DNA of 64,000 bases from the NCBI GenBank assembly GCA_977017645.1, contig OZ360221.1, forward strand, positions 199,578,001-199,642,000, read 5' to 3'. Below are positions 27,373-52,379 of this stretch, in pieces. Within the stretch, counting starts at the first letter, position 1. The number at the start of each line of letters is the position of its first letter. Source of the stretch: Torpedo marmorata. Taxonomy: Eukaryota. Position numbers and translations under genes: made by a program. The notes beneath the pieces are model-generated. The model made no database searches and had not been told where the DNA came from. It worked only from the letters and a program-made list of their open reading frames with translations.

Positions 27373-28029
27373 GAAATGAATGTAACAATGTACAGTGATG
27401 GAAATATATGCATATGAAACTCAGAGTGGGAAAAGACTTTGAATGGTTTTCCTTTTGTAAATGATTTATTGTGAATAAAGTCTATTTTGGTAAAAGGAAA
27501 GTAGATTTAACTCTGAGATGAGGAGGAACTGCTTCTCTCAGAGTAGTGAATCTAGAATTCTCTGCCCAAGGAAGCAGTAAAGGCTGCCTCATTAAATGCA
27601 TTTAAGACATGGGTAGATCTTTGAATAGTAGGGGAATTAAGGGTTATGAAGAATAGGTGGGTAAGTGGATCTGAGTCCACAGCCAGATCAGCCATGATCT
27701 TGAGACACACAGGAGACTGCAGATGCAGGAATCTGAAGCCAAACACTGGAGGAACTCAGCATCAGTGTGAGCAAAAAAAATGGATGACGTTTCGGGCTAA
27801 AACCCTTTACCGAGACTGGGGAAATGTGGGAGGAAAGCCATGATATTGAATGCCGGAGCAGACTCAAAGGGCCAGATGGCCAACTCCTGCGCCATATGTT
27901 CTAGTAGAGACTGCAGGTGCTGGAATCTAGATCAAAATCTGGAATCTGGAACAGAACACTGAAAGAATTCGGTGGGTAAAGCAGTATTTACAGAGGCAAA
28001 AGATATATGTTAACTTTTCCAGTCTCAAT

Positions 28030-30200
28030 GTGTCGCCATTCCTGATGCAGGGGACTGGTGTGGGTGTGTCAACAGTCCTGACACAGGGAAGTGATGTTGG
28101 GTCTCGGTGTGTCATCAGTCCTGACACAGGGGACTGATATAGGGTCTCGGTGTGTCATCAGTCCTGACACAGGGGACTGATATAGGGTCTCAGTGTGTCA
28201 TCAGTCCTGACACAGGGGACTGATATAGGGTCTCGGTGTGTCATCAGTCCTGACACAGGGGACTGATATAGGGTCTCAGTGTGTCATCAGTCCTGACACA
28301 GGGGACTGATATAGGGTCTCGGTGTGTCATCAGTCCTGACACAGGGGACTGATATAGGGTCTCAGTGTGTCAACAGTCCTGACACAGGGAAGTGATGTTG
28401 GGTCTCGGTGTGTCATCAGTCCTGACACAGGGGACTGGTATAGGGTCTCGGTGTGTCATCAGTCCTGACACAGGGGACTGATATAGGGTCTCAGTGTGTC
28501 ATCAGTCCTGACACAGGGGACTGATATAGGGTCTCGTTGTGTCATCAGTCCTGACACAGGGAAGTGATGTTGGGTCTCGTTGTGTCATCAGTCCTGACAC
28601 AGGGGACTGATATAGGGTCTCGTTGTGTCATCAGTCCTGATGCAGGGAGTGATGTTGGGTCTCAGTGTGTCATCAGTCCTGACACAGGGGACTGATATAG
28701 GGTCTCGTTGTGTCAACAGTCCTGACACAGGGAAGTGATGTTGGTCTCGGTGTGTCATCAGTCCTGACACAGGGAAGTGATGTTGGGTCTCGTTGTGTCA
28801 TCAGTCCTGACACAGGGGACTGATATAGGGTCTCGTTGTGTCATCAGTCCTGATGCAGGGAGTGATGTTGGGTCTCAGTGTGTCATCAGTCCTGACACAG
28901 GGAACTGATATAGGGTCTCAGTGTGTCATCAGTCCTGACACAGGGGACTGATATAGGGTCTCGGTGTGTCATCAGTCCTGACACAGGGGACTGGTATAGG
29001 GTCTCGGTGTGTCATCAGTCCTGACACAGGGGACTGATGTTGGGTCTCGGTGTGTCATCAGTCCTGACACCTGCGCCCACACCTCCCCCCTCACCACGGT
29101 CCAGGGCCCCAAACAGGCCTTCCAAGTGAAACTACACTTCACTTGTACATCCAGAGAACTTATTTACTGCATCCGGTGCTCCCTTTGTGGTTTTCTATAC
29201 ATTGGAGAGACCGGTCGTAGATTGGGAGACCGCTTTGCTGAGCACCTCCTCTCCGTCCACAACAACAGCGACCTCCCAGTAGCCAACCATTTCAATTCTT
29301 GGTCACACTCCCACACTCACATGTCTGTCCATGGCCTCATGTACTATCCCACCCAGACTACCCGCAAATTGGAGGAACAACATCTCATATTCCGTCTCGG
29401 CACTCTCCAGCCAGATGGCATTAACATTGACTTTTCTGCTTTCCACTAAACCTGCTTGTTGTTCCCTTCCCCTCCCCCCTCACCTGTCCTTCCTGTTTTT
29501 TTCCACCCACCCAGCCATCCCTCCTCCCCCTCTTTGCTGCTGTCCCCTCCCTCCTTTCTCCACCTATCATCTCCTGCCTTTGCCACCCCCCCCCCTTCCC
29601 CCCTCACTCCTTTGTTCGGACGCCTGCCGGCATTTTCTCATACTTTGATGAAGGGCTCAAGCCAGAAACGTCGGTTATGTATTTCTACCTTTGCTACATA
29701 AAAGACACTGTTTGACCTGCTGAGTTCTCCAGCTTTTGTGTTTTTTACTACATTATTACGGTGTCTACAGATTTTCGTGTTTACTTCACAGGGAGTGATG
29801 TTGGGTCTCAGTGTGTCATCAGTCCTGACACAGGGGACTGATGTAGGGTCTCGGTGTGTCATCAGCCCTGACACAGGGGACTGATGTTGGGTCTCGGTGT
29901 GTCATCAGTCCTGACACAGGGGAGTGATGTTGGGTCTCAGTGTGTCATCAGTCCTGACACAGGGGACTGATATAGGGTCTTCAGTGTGTCATCAGTCCTG
30001 ACACAGGGGACTGATATAGGGTCTCAGTGTGTCATCAGTCCTGACACAGGGGACTGATATAGGGTCTCAGTGTGTCATCAGTCCTGACACAGGGGAGTGA
30101 TGTTGGGTCTCGGTGTGTCATCAGTCTTGACACAGGGAAGTGATGTTGGGTCTCAGTGTGTCATCAGTCCTGATGCAGGGAGTGATGTTGGTGTGAAATC
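28030..30200. repeat. 43-bp minisatellite, about 33 copies in two blocks (28030-29070, 29788-30200)
   Basis: Unit gtgtgtcatcagtcctgacacaggggactgatatagggtctc(a/g); period 43 seen at 28141 and 28184. Variant gggaagtgatgttggg. Confidence 0.97.
29071..29787 (+). mobile_element. Penelope 3' fragment (GIY-YIG plus pseudo-LTR) inserted in the minisatellite
   Basis: HFTCTSRELIYCIRCSLCGFLYIGETGRRLGDRFAEH. ttgatgaagggctcaagccagaaacgtcgg at about 29645-29673. Confidence 0.92.
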
Positions 30201-31239
30201 AGTCCCATTGCAGGGGATTATTGTTGGATCTTGGTGTGATGACCTGGAGCTCAAGGCTGTAAATTGGCATCCCAAATCCTGATGTAGGAACTTGACATTA
30301 AACGTTGACATGCCTCTTGCCTTCATAGATGTTGCTTTACCCTCTATGTTCTTTCAGCCTCCTGTTTTTCTTTGCGCTATGCCATTGTCTGCTGTCACCA
30401 TGCATTACTGTTCTATATTTGGTGCGCAAGGCACATTGCATTTATCAATCACATAAGCAAATCCCATGTCACACTACTTGCAATGCAAGGCTGGTCTCCC
30501 TGCTGTAACTAGAATCTCGATTAGACACAGGATTACAAAAGGAACAATAGTGGTGAGTTTGACACCAGCCAGCTGGAGGATCAAATGTCCCCAGTTCTCT
30601 CTTAGAAAACTAGGTTACTTATTGCATTTGATTATCCTGAAACATATAATAGCGCCACTCTATTTATTAGGTCAGAGCACTGACTTGAAAACTTGCTGGG
30701 ATCCCTGCATTCTAAGTTTGATATTGGCTTTTGCCTCTTAACATTTATTCTGAAACAAATGTGAAACCCATGGGCGTAGGTGTTTCACTCGGACAATGGG
30801 TGGGAATGAGAGGAATCCGAGGGGGAAATGGAATTAGGTTCACACGCCAACTGAAACAATTGATTGTATTTCTTCACCCATAGATTTCCCAGTTATAATT
30901 AGCAACACAGCCAAGCAATCATCAGTTAATCGCCTACTGACTGACTGCCTGTCAGCGAATATTACATACAAATTGTTAAAGAGCTTTCAGTGTAATGCGC
31001 GAAGCTCAGATTCTAAACTCCTCTACCGTGCTGACTCCTTTGTGCATTTCCACCAAGCTCAGTTCACTCCCAGAACACCAAAAGACACAATAAATGTGTA
31101 AAAGACCGCAACTTGAAATTTTACTTGGGAAAACTGAGAACATTCCACCGACATTTAGACAACCCATAGTACACACGTTGTAAATTGTAATCAAATATTG
31201 CTTTCGTTAAAAAAAATGGGGGAGGGGGATGCAACAGCA

Positions 31240-44240: not shown

Positions 44241-44553
44241 CTGCAGCAACCATATCACACTGCGATGCAGCCAGCCAGGATGCTCCCAATAGAGCTCCTA
44301 TACAAGGGTGACATGATGGTGGCCGGTGGCCTTGCCCACCTCAGTCTTCTCAGGTGTGCAGTCGCTCGTGCATTTCCTGACAAGTGAGGAAATGTTGTAT
44401 GTCCAGGATAGATAACTACTTGAGTGGATTCCAAGGAACGGTGCTCTCTACTCTCTCCACTGCCAAGCTACTAATGTATAGAGGAGGGTGGTGGTCCGTG
44501 GTCCTCCTGAAGTCTACAGTCATCTTATTTGTCCTGTCCATGTTGAGACTCAG

Positions 44554-45138
44554 TGTAAGAGCCATAGGCTCATTAACTTACCTTGCTGCGGCGCTCCGGC
44601 GCCTCGTCGGCTTGTGGAGCGCTCGCGTTGTCTGTTGGTCCATCGTCGGCCCGTTCTGTGCTCTGTGCATGTGCTGGAGTGCCGACGGGCGCATGCGCAG
44701 TGTGGAGTGAGGTCATTATGCGCGTGGCAGCCTGGGAAATGTAGTATGCGCGGTGGAGGGTGCGCAGTGGTTTAGGGAGGGAGCTTGCGCAAATTTTCTA
44801 GAAAAGGAAAGGAATGAGATGTTAGGAGGGTGAGTGAGATCTCCATATCTTTATTGAACATTTTACATCGTTTTATAACGTTTTTACATCGTTTTACAGC
44901 GTTTTACAGTGTTTCATATCATTTTGGAATTGTTTAAAGAATCATTTAAAGGAACTCTTCATACATCATTTCAAGAACTGTTTATATTGAAGTATTGAAG
45001 ATTACTGCAAGTCACGTGTGTAAATAAAGGTTTTGAACATATTGGACTTTGTTAGTAAATTAATTAAAATGCGTCAAAGACAAAAGTATCTCACTTAGCC
45101 TCCAGGTGACTAAATGTTGGATCGAAGTCACCGTATTA
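44554..45138 (+). repeat. 5' LTR
   Basis: TGTAAGAGCC...ccgtatTA; near-identical to 49697-50281; AATAAA at about 45023. Confidence 0.97.
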
Positions 45139-45583
45139 TAGTCAATAAAAAGCTGGCTGTTTGGAACAGAAGTTTGAAAGAAAGAAGATAGAAAGAACTC
45201 TCTGTGCTTGGGACTGATATAAAATGGTGGCCATCTTGGAGATGCCTCGAGTTGGGGGCAGTTTGTAATCCACAACCACTGCCATGAATAACAGCCAGAG
45301 AGGGATTTAAAGCTTCAAATCTTATAGTAAAGTGTCCAAAATCCGTTGGAGAAACTATTTTTGGAAAATCAATGATATTAGTGACGGATGTTGTGGTTGA
45401 AACTCGTTTGTGGATTGCAGCACATTACAGTCATTTGAAGTGGTAGGCATAAGTCTGTGGACTCCTTCTGTGTATCTTTAGCAAGTAAGAACACAGATTG
45501 GAATTGCTGCCGCTGGTCCATTGGGGACTGTTGTTTGGCTGGTATTGTGTATGATTGAAGGAAAGAGGAACAAGACGAGTAAA

Positions 45584-46350
45584 ATGGCCGCAGCAGCCAC
45601 TGATACAGCAGCTACTGATATATCAGCAGCTGACGCATCAACCGCTGATGTTGCTGTTGAGGACCAACATATTGAAGACATGAAGGTTGCGGATATTAAA
45701 GAAGAATTGAAGCGACTGAAAAAGGACATAAGAGGAAATAAAAGGGTTCTTATCGAAAGATTGAAGCAGGCAAAGGATGAAGAGGCAGCTTCATTAAATG
45801 AACAAGAAGATAACTTGGAAATGGCTGAAATTGTGTCAACAAATGATGAAGAAATTAAAGTGGTTGAAGATGCAAAGGATATACAATTCTAATTGGATAA
45901 AGAGGTAAGTATGAAGACAGCATATGAACTGCAGGACGAAATACAAGCAAGTGACAGTGTCTCAAATGCTGAAAGCAGGAGAAGCAAAAGAAGTTCTGGT
46001 TCGAGCTCCAGAGTTTCTCGTACTTCAAGTTCTGCATCGTCACCTACAAAGATTGATGTTAGATTGGCCGCTCTTCTTGCACAACAAGAATTTCTTAAGG
46101 ATAAACATGTTTTAGAAGAACAGGAGGAGGAACTGAAGGAGGAGCAGCTGAGGCTGAACCAACAACTAAGAAAGAGACAAGAGCAGCTAAGAAAGAAAAA
46201 AGAGCAGCTAAGAAAGAAAAAAGAACAGCAGGAGCTGGAAGCAAACATTGCTATTGCCAAGGCAGAAAAAAAAGCAATAGAAGGCTCAATAGTATTTGGC
46301 GCTCGAAGTAAATTATCTAAAGTGTCTTATAATAAAAGGTCATATTTAAA
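45584..46350 (+). pseudogene. Polyprotein N-terminus: SAP domain (SAFB/SLTM-like) plus Gag coiled coil; one in-frame stop at 45890
   Basis: ATG at 45584 (aaaATGG). IEDMKVADIKEELKRLKKDIRGNKRVLIERLKQA at 45671-45772 fits the SAP pattern. The same frame continues into BEL-type DEI..SDSVSN..SSASS..AALLA..LKDKH.LEEQ. Confidence 0.85.
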
Positions 46351-46412
46351 AAGAGTCACAGGAAAAGAAACCAACCAAAAGGATAGATATTGTAGAACCA
46401 AGGATACAAGAT

Positions 46413-48458
46413 TTGCAAATACAAGGACAAATCTTTCAAGAGCATATTGGTAACGAGTCACATGTACCAATGGTAACATCTGAAGATAAGGCTGCGGCTT
46501 GGGTTCGGTCGAACGAAGCAGCTTCTTTGTTATTTGAGTCAAACATCAGAAATATGGAAGAAACTACACCAGTGAGGTTTCCAGATACATTGCATGCAAC
46601 AAGAAACAGTGAACAGAGCAATATATTGTCGTCCAAGGAAAGACAAAATGAAATTGCTGCATCATTGTTTCAGTTACAGTCTCTCTCTTCTTTACCCAAG
46701 AAAGAGATACAAACTTTTGATGGTGATCCACTTCAATATCAATCATTTATGAGATCTTTCAAACGCAATATTGAAGATAAATGTCAAGATCGTGATGAAT
46801 GTCTTTATTATTTGGAAATGTTCACAAAGGGACATCCAAAAGAATTGGTAAAGAGTTGTAAACAAATGTCTTCAGAAAGAGGATTAGACAAAGCTAAGGC
46901 TTTATTGGAACAATATTTTGGCAACAAGCATCGAATTGCTTTAGCTTATATGGATAAAGCTCTTAAATGGACATCAATAAAACAAAATGATGTAAAGGCT
47001 CTGCAAGAATATACTTTGTTTTTAAGAGGATGTTGTAATGCTATGGAAGAAATCGATAATATTCGTGAGCTTGAAGTGCATAGTAATATGCGAATCATCT
47101 TAGAAAAATTACCTTACAAGTTATGGGATAGATGGAGAGATTTGGCTTGTGATTTACAAGTAGATTATGGTCGAAAAATTGCCTTAAAGGATTTGGTAAA
47201 TTTTCTTGAACGACGGGTGTACGTTGAAACGGATCCACTATATGGAAATACCAGAGATAATTCTATGGGCAAAGATGTAAGGAAGTCTAACACACAGTCT
47301 AGTCCGAAATTGAAAAGGAGTACTTTTGCTACTAATGTGCAAGTTATAAGTAAAGAAAAGGACAAAGTAAATAAGGAAAAGGAAAGTTTGCCTAATGAAA
47401 AGAGTTGTTTGTTCTGTAAAGGTGGACATACTTTGGAAATGTGTTTACGATTGGAAAAGAAGGAACATAAGGAAAAAATCGCTTTCTTAAAGGAAAATGG
47501 AATATGTTTTAGCTGTCTGTGTAAAGGACACATCAGTAAAAACTGCGAGAAGCGAATTAATTGTAACATATGCAATTTGAAACATCCTAGAGTTTTGCAT
47601 ATCCATAACAGAAACAAGGAATTGGAAAAGGAGCAAACAGAAACAAAGGAAACAACAGAAAATAATGTTATAACCTCGGTTCAGACAAGTGGTCTTACCA
47701 GGGCCGGTGTGAATAACTGTAAACTTTCGATAGTGCCTGTACAAGTCAAGACCAAGAAAGGGGATGCAATAGTAAAAACATATGCATTTCTAGACCCAGG
47801 CAGCACTGCATCTTTTTGCACGGAAGGACTAATGAATAAACTTAATATTCAAGGAAAAAGATCAAGAATTATGTTAAAAACCATGGGACAAGAAAAGGTT
47901 GTTGAAACTAACATTGTTTCAGGCTTAGAGGTTGCTGGATTGGATGACAAAAATTTTTGTGATCTTCCAAGTGTATATACTCAGAAGACTATGCCTGTGA
48001 ATGAAGGAAATATTACTCATCAAAGGGATATCCATCATTTAGCTTATCTGTGGAAGGTTTATTTACCTGAAATTAATTCTGAAATAGAAATGCTGATTGG
48101 TTCAGATGTGCCAAAGGTTTTTGTACCAAAAGAAGTAATAGAGAGTAAAAGGAATGGACCTTATGCTGTTAAAACCATGCTTGGTTGGACAATCAATGGA
48201 CCACTGGAAAGAAATAATGATATTGCTCAGGAACAGTTAGCGATAAATATTAATAGAATTTCGGTTGAGAAAGTTGAAGAGTTAAGCGAAGAGCAAAAAA
48301 CCGTGAATAAGAAAATCACTTTTGAAGAAAAGAAAACAGATCAATGTGAAAATAAATCAATGGTATTTAAAACAACATTGAAGGAATTAATTTCGTCAGA
48401 AATGGATGAAAGTGAAGTATTAGAAGATGTTGCAAATAATACTATTGATCATGTGTAA
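46413..48458 (+). CDS. BEL Gag core (DUF1759-like), zinc knuckles and aspartic protease
   Basis: LPKKEIQTFDGDPLQY, CLFCKGGHTLEMC, CFSCLCKGHISKNC, CNICNLKHPRVLH, YAFLDPGSTASF and GPYAVKTMLGWTINGP. Confidence 0.95.
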   Translation: MQIQGQIFQEHIGNESHVPMVTSEDKAAAWVRSNEAASLLFESNIRNMEETTPVRFPDTLHATRNSEQSNILSSKERQNEIAASLFQLQSLSSLPKKEIQTFDGDPLQYQSFMRSFKRNIEDKCQDRDECLYYLEMFTKGHPKELVKSCKQMSSERGLDKAKALLEQYFGNKHRIALAYMDKALKWTSIKQNDVKALQEYTLFLRGCCNAMEEIDNIRELEVHSNMRIILEKLPYKLWDRWRDLACDLQVDYGRKIALKDLVNFLERRVYVETDPLYGNTRDNSMGKDVRKSNTQSSPKLKRSTFATNVQVISKEKDKVNKEKESLPNEKSCLFCKGGHTLEMCLRLEKKEHKEKIAFLKENGICFSCLCKGHISKNCEKRINCNICNLKHPRVLHIHNRNKELEKEQTETKETTENNVITSVQTSGLTRAGVNNCKLSIVPVQVKTKKGDAIVKTYAFLDPGSTASFCTEGLMNKLNIQGKRSRIMLKTMGQEKVVETNIVSGLEVAGLDDKNFCDLPSVYTQKTMPVNEGNITHQRDIHHLAYLWKVYLPEINSEIEMLIGSDVPKVFVPKEVIESKRNGPYAVKTMLGWTINGPLERNNDIAQEQLAININRISVEKVEELSEEQKTVNKKITFEEKKTDQCENKSMVFKTTLKELISSEMDESEVLEDVANNTIDHV

Positions 48459-48484
48459 TTGAATCAAATATAGGAATAAAACAA

Positions 48485-49333
48485 GTGACTGAAAACAAAT
48501 CTGAATGTAGATTTTGTAGTTCAGAGATTACAACAGACAAAGCTAATGAAGAAAGATTACAATGTGATGTAAAACTGGAAAACACAGAAAATTGTGCTGA
48601 TGGAATAAAGAATAATGTGAATGATAATTTAATGCAATTGAATTCAGAGAACAAAATGTTGAAAGGGGAATTGGAAATATTAGATAATCAAGAAAACAGT
48701 AAACAGAAAGATTTAATTGTAAGTAAAACTTGCAAAGTCAGAAAGCGGAAGAAAAGAATAACTGCTGAAGAAATGAATACAGTTATTGAGGAAAGAGATT
48801 CAGCATTATCAAAATGTAAAAGGTTGGAGGAAGAGATTAATGTTTTGAAAGAGAACAAGTTATTGGTTAATAACTCAAAACAGTTGACTCTAAAAACCAA
48901 TCAAGAATGTAAATTGAATGTTCAACAATTAACAATGCAGAAAGAATGTGATATTGCATTGCAGAAATGTAACAAGCAAGACGAAGAAATTAAAAAATTT
49001 CAAGTTTGCCGCAACAGGATTGACAATGGAAATATCCATGTATCACATGATATTTTGACTTCAGATCAAATTATTAATTTCTCGGAAAGAACTGAGACTG
49101 AATTGAAAGTTGCAAAATTGGATTTAGAATTGCAGGAAAGAGCAATAGAAACCAGATTGGTTAAACAGACCTGTTTAAAATCGAAAGGATCAGATAAATA
49201 TTCAAATTCTAATTCTAAGAGTTTAAATTCTTCACATGAGAAGTGGAATACTGAAGAAAGGAATAAAGTGAAACGACATGCTGAAGAAGTGCCTTGTGTT
49301 AAATTCAAAAGAAAAACTATCTATTTTATCTGA
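48485..49333 (+). CDS. Coiled-coil ORF containing a MIPOL1-like segment (48713-49006) in place of pol
   Basis: RITAEEMNTVIEERDSALSKCKRLEEE closely resembles vertebrate MIPOL1 as I recall it (RITAEEMSALIEERDAALSKCKRLEQE). Weaker similarity continues to EEIKKFQV. Confidence 0.8.
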   Translation: MTENKSECRFCSSEITTDKANEERLQCDVKLENTENCADGIKNNVNDNLMQLNSENKMLKGELEILDNQENSKQKDLIVSKTCKVRKRKKRITAEEMNTVIEERDSALSKCKRLEEEINVLKENKLLVNNSKQLTLKTNQECKLNVQQLTMQKECDIALQKCNKQDEEIKKFQVCRNRIDNGNIHVSHDILTSDQIINFSERTETELKVAKLDLELQERAIETRLVKQTCLKSKGSDKYSNSNSKSLNSSHEKWNTEERNKVKRHAEEVPCVKFKRKTIYFI

Positions 49334-49493: not shown

Positions 49494-49696
49494 TAAATGT
49501 AAACTGACTTTATTTGTTGTTGTATATTTCACAGGCTACAGACTTTTGTTGAATCAGAGTTATGGTAAACTCTAGATTTATGAAGAAGGAAGAAAGAAGA
49601 TTTGTATTGTTTGAATGTTACGGTTATTGTTATTATAATTTTATAGTGTAATTATTATTCAAGACATTGCGTCTAATTATAATAATTAGGGGCCGG

Positions 49697-50281
49697 TGTA
49701 AGAGCCGTAGGCTCATTAACTTACCTTGCTGCGGCGCTCCGGCGCCTCGTCGGCTTGTGGAGCGCTCGCGTTGTCTGTTGGGCCGTCGTCGGCCCGTTCT
49801 GTGCTCTGCGCATGCGCTGGAGTGCCGACGGGCGCATGCGCAGTGTGGAGTGAGGTCATTGTGCGCGTGGCAGCCTGGGAAATGTAGTATGCGCGGTGGA
49901 GGGTGCGCAGTGGTTTAGGGAGGGAGCTTGCGCAAATTTTCTAGAAAAGGAAAGGAATGAGATGTTAGGAGGGTGAGTGAGATCTCCATATCTTTATTGA
50001 ACGTTTTACATCGTTTTATAACGTTTTTACATCGTTTTACAGCGTTTTACAGTGTTTCATATCGTTTTGGAATTGTTTAAAGAATCATTTAAAGGAACTC
50101 TTCATACATCATTTCAAGAACTGTTTATATTGAAGTATTGAAGATTACTGCAAGTCACCTGTGTAAATAAAGGTTTTGAACATATTGGATTTTGTTAGTA
50201 AATTAATTAAAACGCGTCAAAGACAAAAGTATCTCACTTAGCCTCCAGGTGACTAAATGTTGGATCGAAGTCACCGTAATA
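49697..50281 (+). repeat. 3' LTR
   Basis: TGTAAGAGCC...ccgtaaTA, preceded by the PPT and followed by TSD ctcag. Confidence 0.97.
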
Positions 50282-52379
50282 CTCAGGTTGTTATTTACGC
50301 ACCATTTCACGAGATTTTCCATCTCCTCTGTAGTGCGACTCATTGCTGTTGCTGATGAGGCCAACTACAGTTGTGTCATATGCAAACTTGATGACTCTGT
50401 TGGAGCTGGATCTGGCGTGGGTCAGTAGCATTAACAGGAGCGGGCTGAGCACGCAGCCCTGATGTGCGCCAGTGCTCAGCATGATGGTGCTTGACGTTCT
50501 GCTGCCGACCTGGACAATTCTGTGTTCTTTCCGTTAGGAAGTCCAGAACCCAGTTAGAGAGAGGGGTTTTGAGTCCCAGCGAGGACAGCTTCTCCACCAG
50601 CCTCTGGGGAATGAGCTGAAGTCAATGAACATCAGCCTGGCGTATGAGGCATTGTTCTCCAGGTGGGTCAGAACAGAGTAGAGGGACACGTTTATAGCAT
50701 CATAAGTGGAACAGTTCTATCTTCAGGTGAGCTGAAAGGGGTCCAGTGTCACTGGGAGGTTTGCTTTGATGCGTTCCATCATCAGATGCTCGAAACATTT
50801 CATAATGGTCAAGGTCAGTGCGACTGGGCGGTAATCGTTGAGGCTTGTTCCTGTCGCCCTCTTTGGTTCCGGGATGATGATGGCTGTGTTGAATGGGGAC
50901 AATGGACTGCAGCGGTGAGGTGTTGAAGATGTCCGTTAAGACCTCAGTCAGTTGGTCTGCGCATACCAGGTATGTTCTCTGGTCCCGCTGCCATGTGTGG
51001 TTTCACCTTGGATAGGGTTCTTCTCACCTCAGCCGCAGCGAGGGACAGGGAACTTTCTTCGGCGTCAGCCTTTTCTTCTTGTTGAACCGTGCGTAGAAGG
51101 TGTTAAGCATGTCTAGAAGAGAAGCGTCATTGTCTTTGACTTGCAAGGTTGACTTGTGGTCTGTTATAAGTTTGATCCCTTGCCTCATGCGCCTAGTGTT
51201 GCCGGTAACTCACAGCTGTCTGTGGATCGTCTGTACATACCCCTGCTTTGCCTTCCGGATTGCATGGGAGAGTTCAACACTGGCTGATCTTAGTGCCATC
51301 TTATCTCCTATCCTGAAGGGAGCATCACGAGCTCTGACAAGTGCATGGATCTCTGCATCCAATCGTGGTTTCTGGTTAGCCCTGGTTGTGAAGCATTTGA
51401 TCTTGGTGACATCCTCAAGCACTTACTGACGTGGTCAGTCAAAGAGCTCGTGTCCTCCTCAATGTTTACATGATGCTGCCGCAAAACACCGAATTTCATG
51501 ACTTGTTCATGACAATAAATTCTAATTCTAATTCTGACTGTTGTAGGTGGCTGCCTCCCTGAAGCAGTTCCAGTCTGTGGTCTCAAGGCAGTCATGTTGT
51601 GCTGCTGCTGTCCCCCACCCCCGGCCATGTCCTGGTCTCCCTGTGAACTGGCATTGTTAGTTTTGCCAGCGGCCTTTATGCTGGAGTTAGCAGGTCTGAT
51701 ATATGATCCGAGTATCCAAGATGGGGGCGAGAGGCAGTCTTGTACACGTTCGTGTACACCCTATCCAGGGTGTTCTCTCCTCTTGTGGCCAGGTGCACCT
51801 ACATGGTAGATCTGTTTTCAGTCCGTACTATTACATGACAATAAAGGAATCTTGAATGAGCTGGAGAAACTCAGCAGGTTATGCAGCATCCATACATTTT
51901 GGGTCTTGTCCCTTCATCACGTTCAACCTTACCTGACAACGGGCCCAGGCCCAAAACTTTGGTAACCCTTCACTTCTTATGGATACTGTGTGACCTGCTG
52001 AGTTTCTCCACCACATTTGTGTATTGCATCCGACCCCACCATCTGCAGACTTTCTTGTTTAATCAGTATAAATAACTACTTGTCAGACAGCAAGCACATG
52101 TTGGGACAAATGGTGATTCTGATTGGGACTTTGTCCTGAAACGTTAGAGTTGCACAGCATGGAAACAGACCATACAACCAAATTCACAAAAACTGCCTAC
52201 TTGAGGTACTGTACTTCCCAAAGTTCCCTATCCCTCTAACCTTCTCCTATCCATGTACTCTTCTGCATGTTTAATGAACTTTGAATTGTACCCACCTCAT
52301 GACCTCCCCAGGCAGCTTGATCCACCTTCCCACTCTCCTTTGTGTTGTCCCTCGGGCCCCCTTTAAACCTTAAATCTCT

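Follow-up and report, generated by a model that had tools for sequence, protein, structure and literature searches.

Capture of host mRNA by LTR elements and endogenous retroviruses is already known, as is the presence of SAP domains in Zisupton DNA transposons and in one family of Penelope-like elements. In LTR retroposition (PMC5131818) and in crocodilian endogenous retroviruses (PMC4299795), part of a spliced host mRNA replaces element sequence, and template switching is a documented route to such LTR-element/mRNA chimeras (PMC5131818). The crocodilian viruses captured KIT-ligand, which was added, and nectin3, which replaced env, and purifying selection on these captures was reported (PMC4299795). 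As these two sources present them, the captures are internal retrocopies or extra ORFs that usually cost the element its autonomy. Zisupton transposons and the Chlamys-1_pPol Penelope-like elements bear SAP domains as well, but they are not LTR elements, their SAP is not on Gag, and the description of them names no host donor (PMC8557442).

The BEL/Pao LTR retrotransposons of Torpedo marmorata described here also carry part of a spliced host mRNA. In contrast to the LTR-element and retroviral captures, the core polyprotein here starts with the host exon as its first domain, in a lineage that is autonomous and young. In the literature we found no report of a SAP domain on an LTR-retrotransposon Gag or of SLTM capture; Repbase, Dfam or supplements could hold the family.

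Structure of the element in the window

The window is the whole 64,000-nucleotide stretch that was analysed (contig OZ360221.1, positions 199,578,001 to 199,642,000). The element within it has the following features:

44549..44553, no strand: target-site duplication CTCAG, left copy, 5 bp, read from the sequence
44554..45138, plus strand: 5' LTR, 585 bp, ~98% identical to the 3' LTR
45139..45157, plus strand: putative primer-binding-site position (TAGTC...), common to the other subfamilies
45546..45583, plus strand: remnant of the captured 38-nt SLTM 5'UTR, 21/39 identical in the window copy
45584..45769, plus strand: derivative of SLTM coding exon 1 (start codon, Ala-rich leader, SAP core)
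45671..45772, plus strand: SAP domain, residues 30-63 (Pfam profile, structure model)
Between 45769 and 45770, plus strand: exon 1/exon 2 junction of SLTM
45770..45785, plus strand: derivative of the first 16 nt of SLTM exon 2, 13/16 identical in the window copy
45786..46453, plus strand: acidic linker, DSVS motif, Ser-rich segment and coiled coil of the BEL Gag
46350..48458, plus strand: Gag capsid (DUF1759), Cys-His zinc knuckles and aspartic protease
48449..49333, plus strand: tail without known family, in place of RT/RNase H/integrase
49681..49696, plus strand: polypurine-tract position
49697..50281, plus strand: 3' LTR
50282..50286, no strand: target-site duplication CTCAG, right copy

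The LTRs of this copy, which align with 570 matches and 11 mismatches, are accompanied by the other marks of BEL/Pao elements, namely a 5-bp target-site duplication, a DUF1759 Gag, Cys-His knuckles and a protease. RT, RNase H (PF05380) and integrase are absent from the window copy, but sister copies within its subfamily have them. The ATG at 45584 starts a frame of 102 codons, in which the Ala-rich leader has grown to 29 codons from the 17 of SLTM. Two lesions, a premature stop (45890-45892) and a later frameshift (near 46350-46450), sever the SAP of this copy from Gag. The window copy is a broken, pol-less, non-autonomous BEL/Pao LTR derivative.

Among non-autonomous copies, a single ORF of ~1,240 aa is intact in 4 of the 12 loci fetched. 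The ~335-aa tail that replaces pol in such copies is common to subfamilies B, C and AB (see below) and has no Pfam match and no match among 120 BEL proteins. A minus-strand frame of ~320 codons (window 45478-46326) runs over SAP, linker and coiled coil and recurs in 11/12 copies; codon use and recent shared ancestry probably account for it. Over its first 250 bp (window 44554-44800 and 49697-49940) the LTR is CpG-island-like, with a GC content of 0.59 and 22 CpG, and contains GCGCA repeats and a GGGAAATGTAGT box, which we take to resemble NRF1 and ZNF143 sites. At a distance of 21 bp from the end of the LTR, the minus strand has a splice-donor-like word, AG/GTAAGT; it is found in the LTRs of loci L113 and L120 as well and not in those of L106 and L114. 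The CpG-rich part may possibly be an antisense promoter firing into flanking DNA. Elsewhere, the window holds a tandem array with a 43-bp unit (27928-30266).

Gag begins with a SAP domain

A SAP domain at the Gag N-terminus had been proposed from the letters alone, and profile comparison bears this out: residues 30-63 score 33.6 bits against the Pfam SAP profile (PF02037), for which the cut-off is 23.9. An AlphaFold model built from an alignment of 19 relatives reached a pLDDT of ~93 over residues 31-60, a confidence that leans on the better-scoring SAPs in that alignment. Its helices (residues 35-44 and 53-72) give the helix-extended loop-helix fold of SAP domains, and the model fits the solved SAP domain 1zrj with an rmsd of 0.5 Å over 34 columns. 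A Foldseek search with the model returned no match at E ≤ 0.001; most of the 20 listed matches are known SAP-domain proteins.

SAP and DUF1759 lie within one natural ORF in all three copies scanned (1,235-1,249 aa), with DUF1759 slightly below its cut-off in one of them. Among 29 other genomic copies, the frame continues beyond the position of the window's stop codon in 26 and extends to at least 520 codons in 14. The SAP-Gag fusion is a genuine feature of the family. Pfam analysis of the three natural full ORFs detected SAP and DUF1759 only, with no RRM and no ER-rich C-terminus. The element protein is not a full SAFB-family member, which would combine SAP, RRM and an ER-rich C-terminus.

The donor is the host SLTM gene

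A profile search of 1.84 billion protein representatives gave 27 matches; five of these are SLTM N-termini or near-identical sequences, ranking after eight multi-SAP-repeat proteins. A query made of the N-terminal 105 residues of one full ORF yielded no match among 788 candidates, an outcome that carries no weight, as SLTM itself was missed too. A search of the 6.2-Gb genome assembly with SLTM as the query placed the host gene on contig C68. It also brought to light an element subfamily, A, that is less derived: its N-terminus shares 91% of amino acids and 93% of nucleotides with the host SLTM SAP. The host gene has an exon 1 with 150 coding bases and a GT donor after RLKQ, an intron of 1,184 nt, an exon 2 of 79 nt that starts AIEEE, and RRM exons ~27 kb downstream.

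When host exon 1 DNA was used as the query (40 of 672 candidates scored), 39/39 non-self matches spanned position -38 to the donor site, and subfamily A was ~88-90% identical to exon 1 including the 5'UTR. The 16 nt that follow exon 1 in the element are the first 16 nt of exon 2, matching 16/16 in 10 of 11 subfamily A copies and 15/16 in the remaining one, after which homology ends. The captured piece comprises 204 nt, of which 38 nt come from the 5'UTR, 150 from exon 1 and 16 from exon 2, and the 1,184-nt intron is exactly missing from the elements. Over the 38-nt 5'UTR, one copy of subfamily A is identical at 35/39 positions, one of subfamily B at 27/39 and the window copy at 21/39. The alignment score of the subfamily A copy is 29 against a shuffle maximum of 8; the window's remnant does no more than reach the shuffle maximum. 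Upstream of the captured piece, neither LTR nor leader matches the SLTM locus.

The combination of a non-coding 5'UTR piece with an intronless, exact exon junction indicates capture from spliced mRNA. The direction of transfer was from host to element, since mammals and teleosts alike have conserved the exon and the intron is present in the host only. We are therefore nearly certain that an ancestral BEL/Pao element acquired one 204-nt piece of spliced SLTM mRNA. The sequence-only reading had suggested that an mRNA 5' end was captured, and the 5'UTR, exon 1 and exon-exon junction of the host's own SLTM are what is found. The likely route would be a template switch by reverse transcriptase to co-packaged SLTM mRNA and back. 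Elements and vertebrate SLTM share the end of the 5'UTR, the start codon, the Ala leader, the SAP core and the exon 1/2 junction; SLTM goes on to an RRM and an ER-rich tail, whereas the elements hold only the 204 nt, fused to Gag.

Longer captures were rejected. For one extending through exon 2, identity was 23-26/63, and a control slid by 3 bases was equal or better in 10/11 copies; for one reaching exon 3, scores fell inside the shuffle range. The segment 'DNLE..VST', earlier singled out for its likeness to SLTM, lies beyond the captured piece. We regard this likeness as a chance match, because in A copies a 17-residue stretch, subsequently lost by deletion, precedes the segment, and the remainder of exon 2 does no better than the slid control.

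No SAP-less pre-capture sister element was found among the 150 of 8,825 candidates that were scored, or at any of 181 loci, a set that was mostly SAP-selected and had no positive control. Near the host SAFB gene, a solo LTR of the SAP element family (85% identical; L097:3035-3604) lies ~3 kb upstream of exon 1; with so many copies in the genome, this could be a coincidence. Another SAFB-like RRM locus, of greater divergence (G000:C54:17152755-17155197), lies ~1 Mb from the SAFB gene, and no SAP exon was found within 30 kb upstream.

Subfamilies form a graded series from SLTM

Nucleotide identity of the SAP to host SLTM is 0.93 in subfamily A, 0.86 in AB, 0.74 in B, 0.65 in C (the window's subfamily) and 0.63 in D. 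By this measure the SAP of every subfamily is nearer to SLTM than to SAFB, and third-position identity across subfamilies is 0.54-0.88 to SLTM and 0.16-0.35 to host SAFB. In the window's subfamily the third-position values are 0.54 versus 0.16, and 61% amino-acid identity to SLTM remains. A tree of SAP DNA (96 nt, with several weak nodes) placed A beside SLTM, followed by AB and B, with C and D nested in B. Capsid trees gave the same order for A, B and C, with C nested in B and A on short branches near teleost BEL proteins (FastTree, one aligned stretch per locus; 48/67 loci kept and 19 dropped for short coverage). A SAFB/SLTM-like origin had been put forward by the sequence-only reading. Its SLTM part is confirmed, including by the phylogenetic grouping, with A beside host SLTM and the window's C nested deeper; its SAFB part is contradicted by the third positions. 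On these sequence comparisons, subfamily C descends from the SLTM capture that subfamily A shows in less-derived form.

The G-N-K motif of B, C and D is also present in host SAFB. Given the SLTM-ordered trees and the third-position identities, this SAFB-like loop arose later by point changes on SLTM codons, as a convergent feature. A second capture, from SAFB, was considered and rejected on third-position identity.

Some SAPs and capsids are mismatched: two distinct capsid clades bear D-type SAPs, and an A-type capsid has a B-type SAP (L046, L047, L054-L056, L104), which, on a 190-aa FastTree tree only, suggests that the leader-SAP module recombined between lineages. Subfamily A capsids (L109, L111, L084) are nearer to some BEL proteins (P0156-P0159), teleost ones among them, than to those of B-D of the same genome, a placement that hints at horizontal transfer. 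The Gag coiled coil (window 46105-46260) measures 5-19 aa in A, 27-48 in B and 37-41 in C where the pattern matched; it has lengthened in B and C via tandem repeats, with a large repeat expansion in L166. That the coiled coil mimics the ER-rich region finds no support: it is longer, but rich in E, Q, K and L and not R-rich like that of SLTM.

The SAP stands where relatives have a helical bundle

Teleost-type BEL/Pao elements (P0156-P0275; cichlid, Danio, Merluccius) resemble the SAP elements in their single Gag-Pol ORF, DUF1759, Cys-His knuckles, protease, RT, PF05380, integrase and 5-bp target-site duplication, and their Gag-protease is 38-59% identical. They differ at the start of Gag, which is a ~105-aa three-helix bundle in the teleost type and the SLTM-derived SAP in the SAP elements. 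None of the closest BEL Gag relatives carries a SAP (0/120, the best 120 of 309; precomputed Pfam and our own profile, best E 0.29), and the alternative that SAP domains were already widespread in BEL gags thus fails. At least 100 residues precede the shared DSVS motif in 85/120 relatives. The N-terminus of the one relative modelled is a three-helix bundle (pLDDT ~95) with generic helical-bundle matches only, the top Z of 13.5 being to a designed protein.

The lack of SAP in the 120 relatives, the long N-terminus in 85 of them and the modelled bundle together indicate that the SAP replaced an ancestral domain, which on the model is the N-terminal three-helix bundle. By in-frame fusion to Gag, the SLTM start codon and SAP supplanted the element's own bundle.

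The fusion lineage is autonomous and young

Twenty-nine of the best 30 Pfam SAP loci in the genome are SAP-Gag elements. When loci were chosen by RNase H alone, SAP was present in 15/18, including 11/11 with an ORF of at least 2,000 aa. Four of the copies with such ORFs were fetched whole; their LTR pairs are 97.4-100% identical, and they fall in the window's subfamily. Subfamily A copies are older, with LTR pairs 89-96% identical. The possibility that subfamilies B and C are wholly non-autonomous was overturned by the full-ORF copies with pol. These data show that the SAP-Gag fusion lineage stayed autonomous and young. From it radiated several subfamilies along with non-autonomous derivatives such as the window copy.

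Equal-scoring SAP matches (50.8 bits, mostly in 292-aa frames) recur on high-numbered or short contigs (G000 C23, C24, C154, C169, C184, C187, C210, C237, C566, C651, C782 and C1158). This series is possibly one insertion amplified within a tandem array.

The SAP has been kept by purifying selection

Over 33 codons, dN/dS was 0.18 for host versus C, 0.28 for host versus B and 0.40 for B versus C; among C copies it was 1.39, as expected of decay after insertion (71/72 loci tried; 12/12 A, 1/2 AB, 15/16 B, 25/26 C and 16/16 D kept). The window SAP differs from the host at 33/99 bases. Against a separate SAP profile, for which 22 unrelated SAP repeats were used, the window SAP scores 46 bits, the host 50 and B 63. 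Neutral simulations with the same number of changes averaged 2-4 bits, and 0/400 reached 46 under either mutation model. If only the number of amino-acid differences is considered, two of the four test copies, the window's and one from B, do better than the neutral null (P ≤ 0.018), and the other two lie within it (P 0.07-0.14).

B and several D copies outscore the donor as SAPs, where most B copies were selected by SAP score; the choice of B and D copies mostly by this score biases towards conservation. Across 19 aligned sequences there are no indels in the SAP and many in the Ala leader and linker. We conclude that the SAP has been kept under purifying selection since capture and, therefore, that it does something for the element.

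Possible functions of the captured domain

The SAP domain of SAFB2 is specific for dsDNA and binds neither RNA nor ssDNA; its affinity is micromolar, and it slightly prefers AT; K53 and S54 are decisive for this binding, an R45 Ala mutant unfolds, and the domain has a weak tendency to dimerise (PMC9958909). In the element SAPs, the hydrophobic core and the G-x-K loop are conserved, and the lysine equivalent to SAFB2 K53 is invariant in 19/19 aligned sequences (numbering mapped by us). The window's subfamily has Leu at the R45 position, Arg or Lys at the S54 position and Lys at a hydrophobic loop position, and its Pfam SAP scores are 28-36 bits versus 45 for the donor. The SAP core is basic, more so in the window's subfamily.

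By analogy, the function we favour is that of a multivalent dsDNA or chromatin tether on Gag, to which we give about an even chance of being correct. As a predicted dsDNA-binding module, the SAP occupies the flexible N-terminal end of Gag, which we infer from modelling to be displayed on the particle surface. With many SAPs per particle or pre-integration complex, micromolar affinity could become avid and tether the complex to host chromatin, which would raise the chance of integration without strong steering to sites. Gag-encoded chromatin tethers have been described in MLV p12 and foamy-virus Gag, and the MLV tether leaves integration site choice unchanged (PMC12336834). Those proteins bind the nucleosome acidic patch (PMC12336834), whereas the SAP type binds dsDNA, and the two are not homologous. 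Against the tether model stand the changed R45 and S54 equivalents, the lower Pfam score and the insertion flanks, which are not AT-rich: for 28 insertions (those of 30 copies with a located LTR start), GC was 0.41 near and 0.43 far (p = 0.49).

Instead of host chromatin, the SAP could bind the element's own double-stranded cDNA in the particle or pre-integration complex, serving compaction, protection or a block to autointegration. The dsDNA-only binding of the SAFB2 SAP (PMC9958909), the lack of target-site bias and the purifying selection, which fits equally well, all speak for this. The modelled N-terminus, however, is far from the zinc knuckles, past the coiled coil, which suggests the outside of the particle, and we consider the cDNA role unlikely.

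Somewhat less probable again is that Gag-SAP acts as a decoy or dominant negative, competing with SLTM/SAFB for chromatin sites or partners and so relieving suppression of transposon RNA. The SAFB family, including SLTM, binds A-rich transposon RNA and suppresses L1, and likewise restrains LTR/ERV elements in mouse and fly (PMC10901741). The A content of the element ORF has risen from ~31-32% in subfamily A to 40% in C, and the weak dimerisation tendency of the SAP (PMC9958909) would also suit a decoy. Partner binding and splicing rescue by SAFB1, however, need the ER-rich C-terminus (PMC10901741), which was not captured. Moreover, a mimic should track its model, and the SAP has drifted from SLTM to the generic SAP pattern (B 63 bits, host 50); the choice of donor may simply mirror an abundant co-packaged mRNA.

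Equally improbable, in our estimate, is that a small basic domain serves to bring Gag into the nucleus or keep it there, for instance to collect nascent element RNA where it is transcribed. SLTM is a nuclear protein, and the basic character of the core fits such a role; the parts that are conserved, the hydrophobic core and the G-x-K loop, would be needless for an import signal. We also give little credence, at about the same low level, to a composite scheme in which the capture came about because SLTM-family RNA or protein travels with element RNA, the SAP both tethers Gag to chromatin and displaces SLTM/SAFB at element loci, and the advantage was large enough for SAP-BELs to replace the ancestral form in this genome as the module spread by recombination to further capsid backbones.

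Very unlikely is a SAP without any nucleic-acid role, tolerated as a folded cap after a capture whose benefit lay in a strong start codon with its 5'UTR, or else in a stable, folded N-terminus. The AAAATGG start context is retained in A, B and C copies, upstream ATGs in the window's leader are weaker or closed, and the youngest subfamily is changed at the R45- and S54-equivalent positions, all of which a mere cap would accommodate. It would not account for a SAP free of indels between a leader and linker that have many, for an invariant surface lysine, or for B and several D copies that outscore the donor as SAPs.

As to the route, DNA-level recombination with an intronless SLTM retrocopy, or a SAP from SAFB or from several captures, could provide an intronless piece and the G-N-K of B, C and D, but is highly improbable given that only the 5' end is present, whereas truncated L1 retrocopies usually keep the reverse (PMC5131818), that both ends are common to 39/39 matches, and that third positions side with SLTM and not SAFB.

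Significance

Host-to-transposon captures are usually regarded as dead cargo or an extra ORF. Here, a single genome shows the donor gene, both breakpoints, the lost intron, graded descendants and continuing selection. The natural domain swap, from three-helix bundle to SAP, offers a probe of the role of the BEL/Pao Gag N-terminus, and the system allows a direct test of whether LTR retrotransposons profit from a chromatin tether. With a donor from a transposon-suppressing family, a counter-defence hypothesis also becomes testable.
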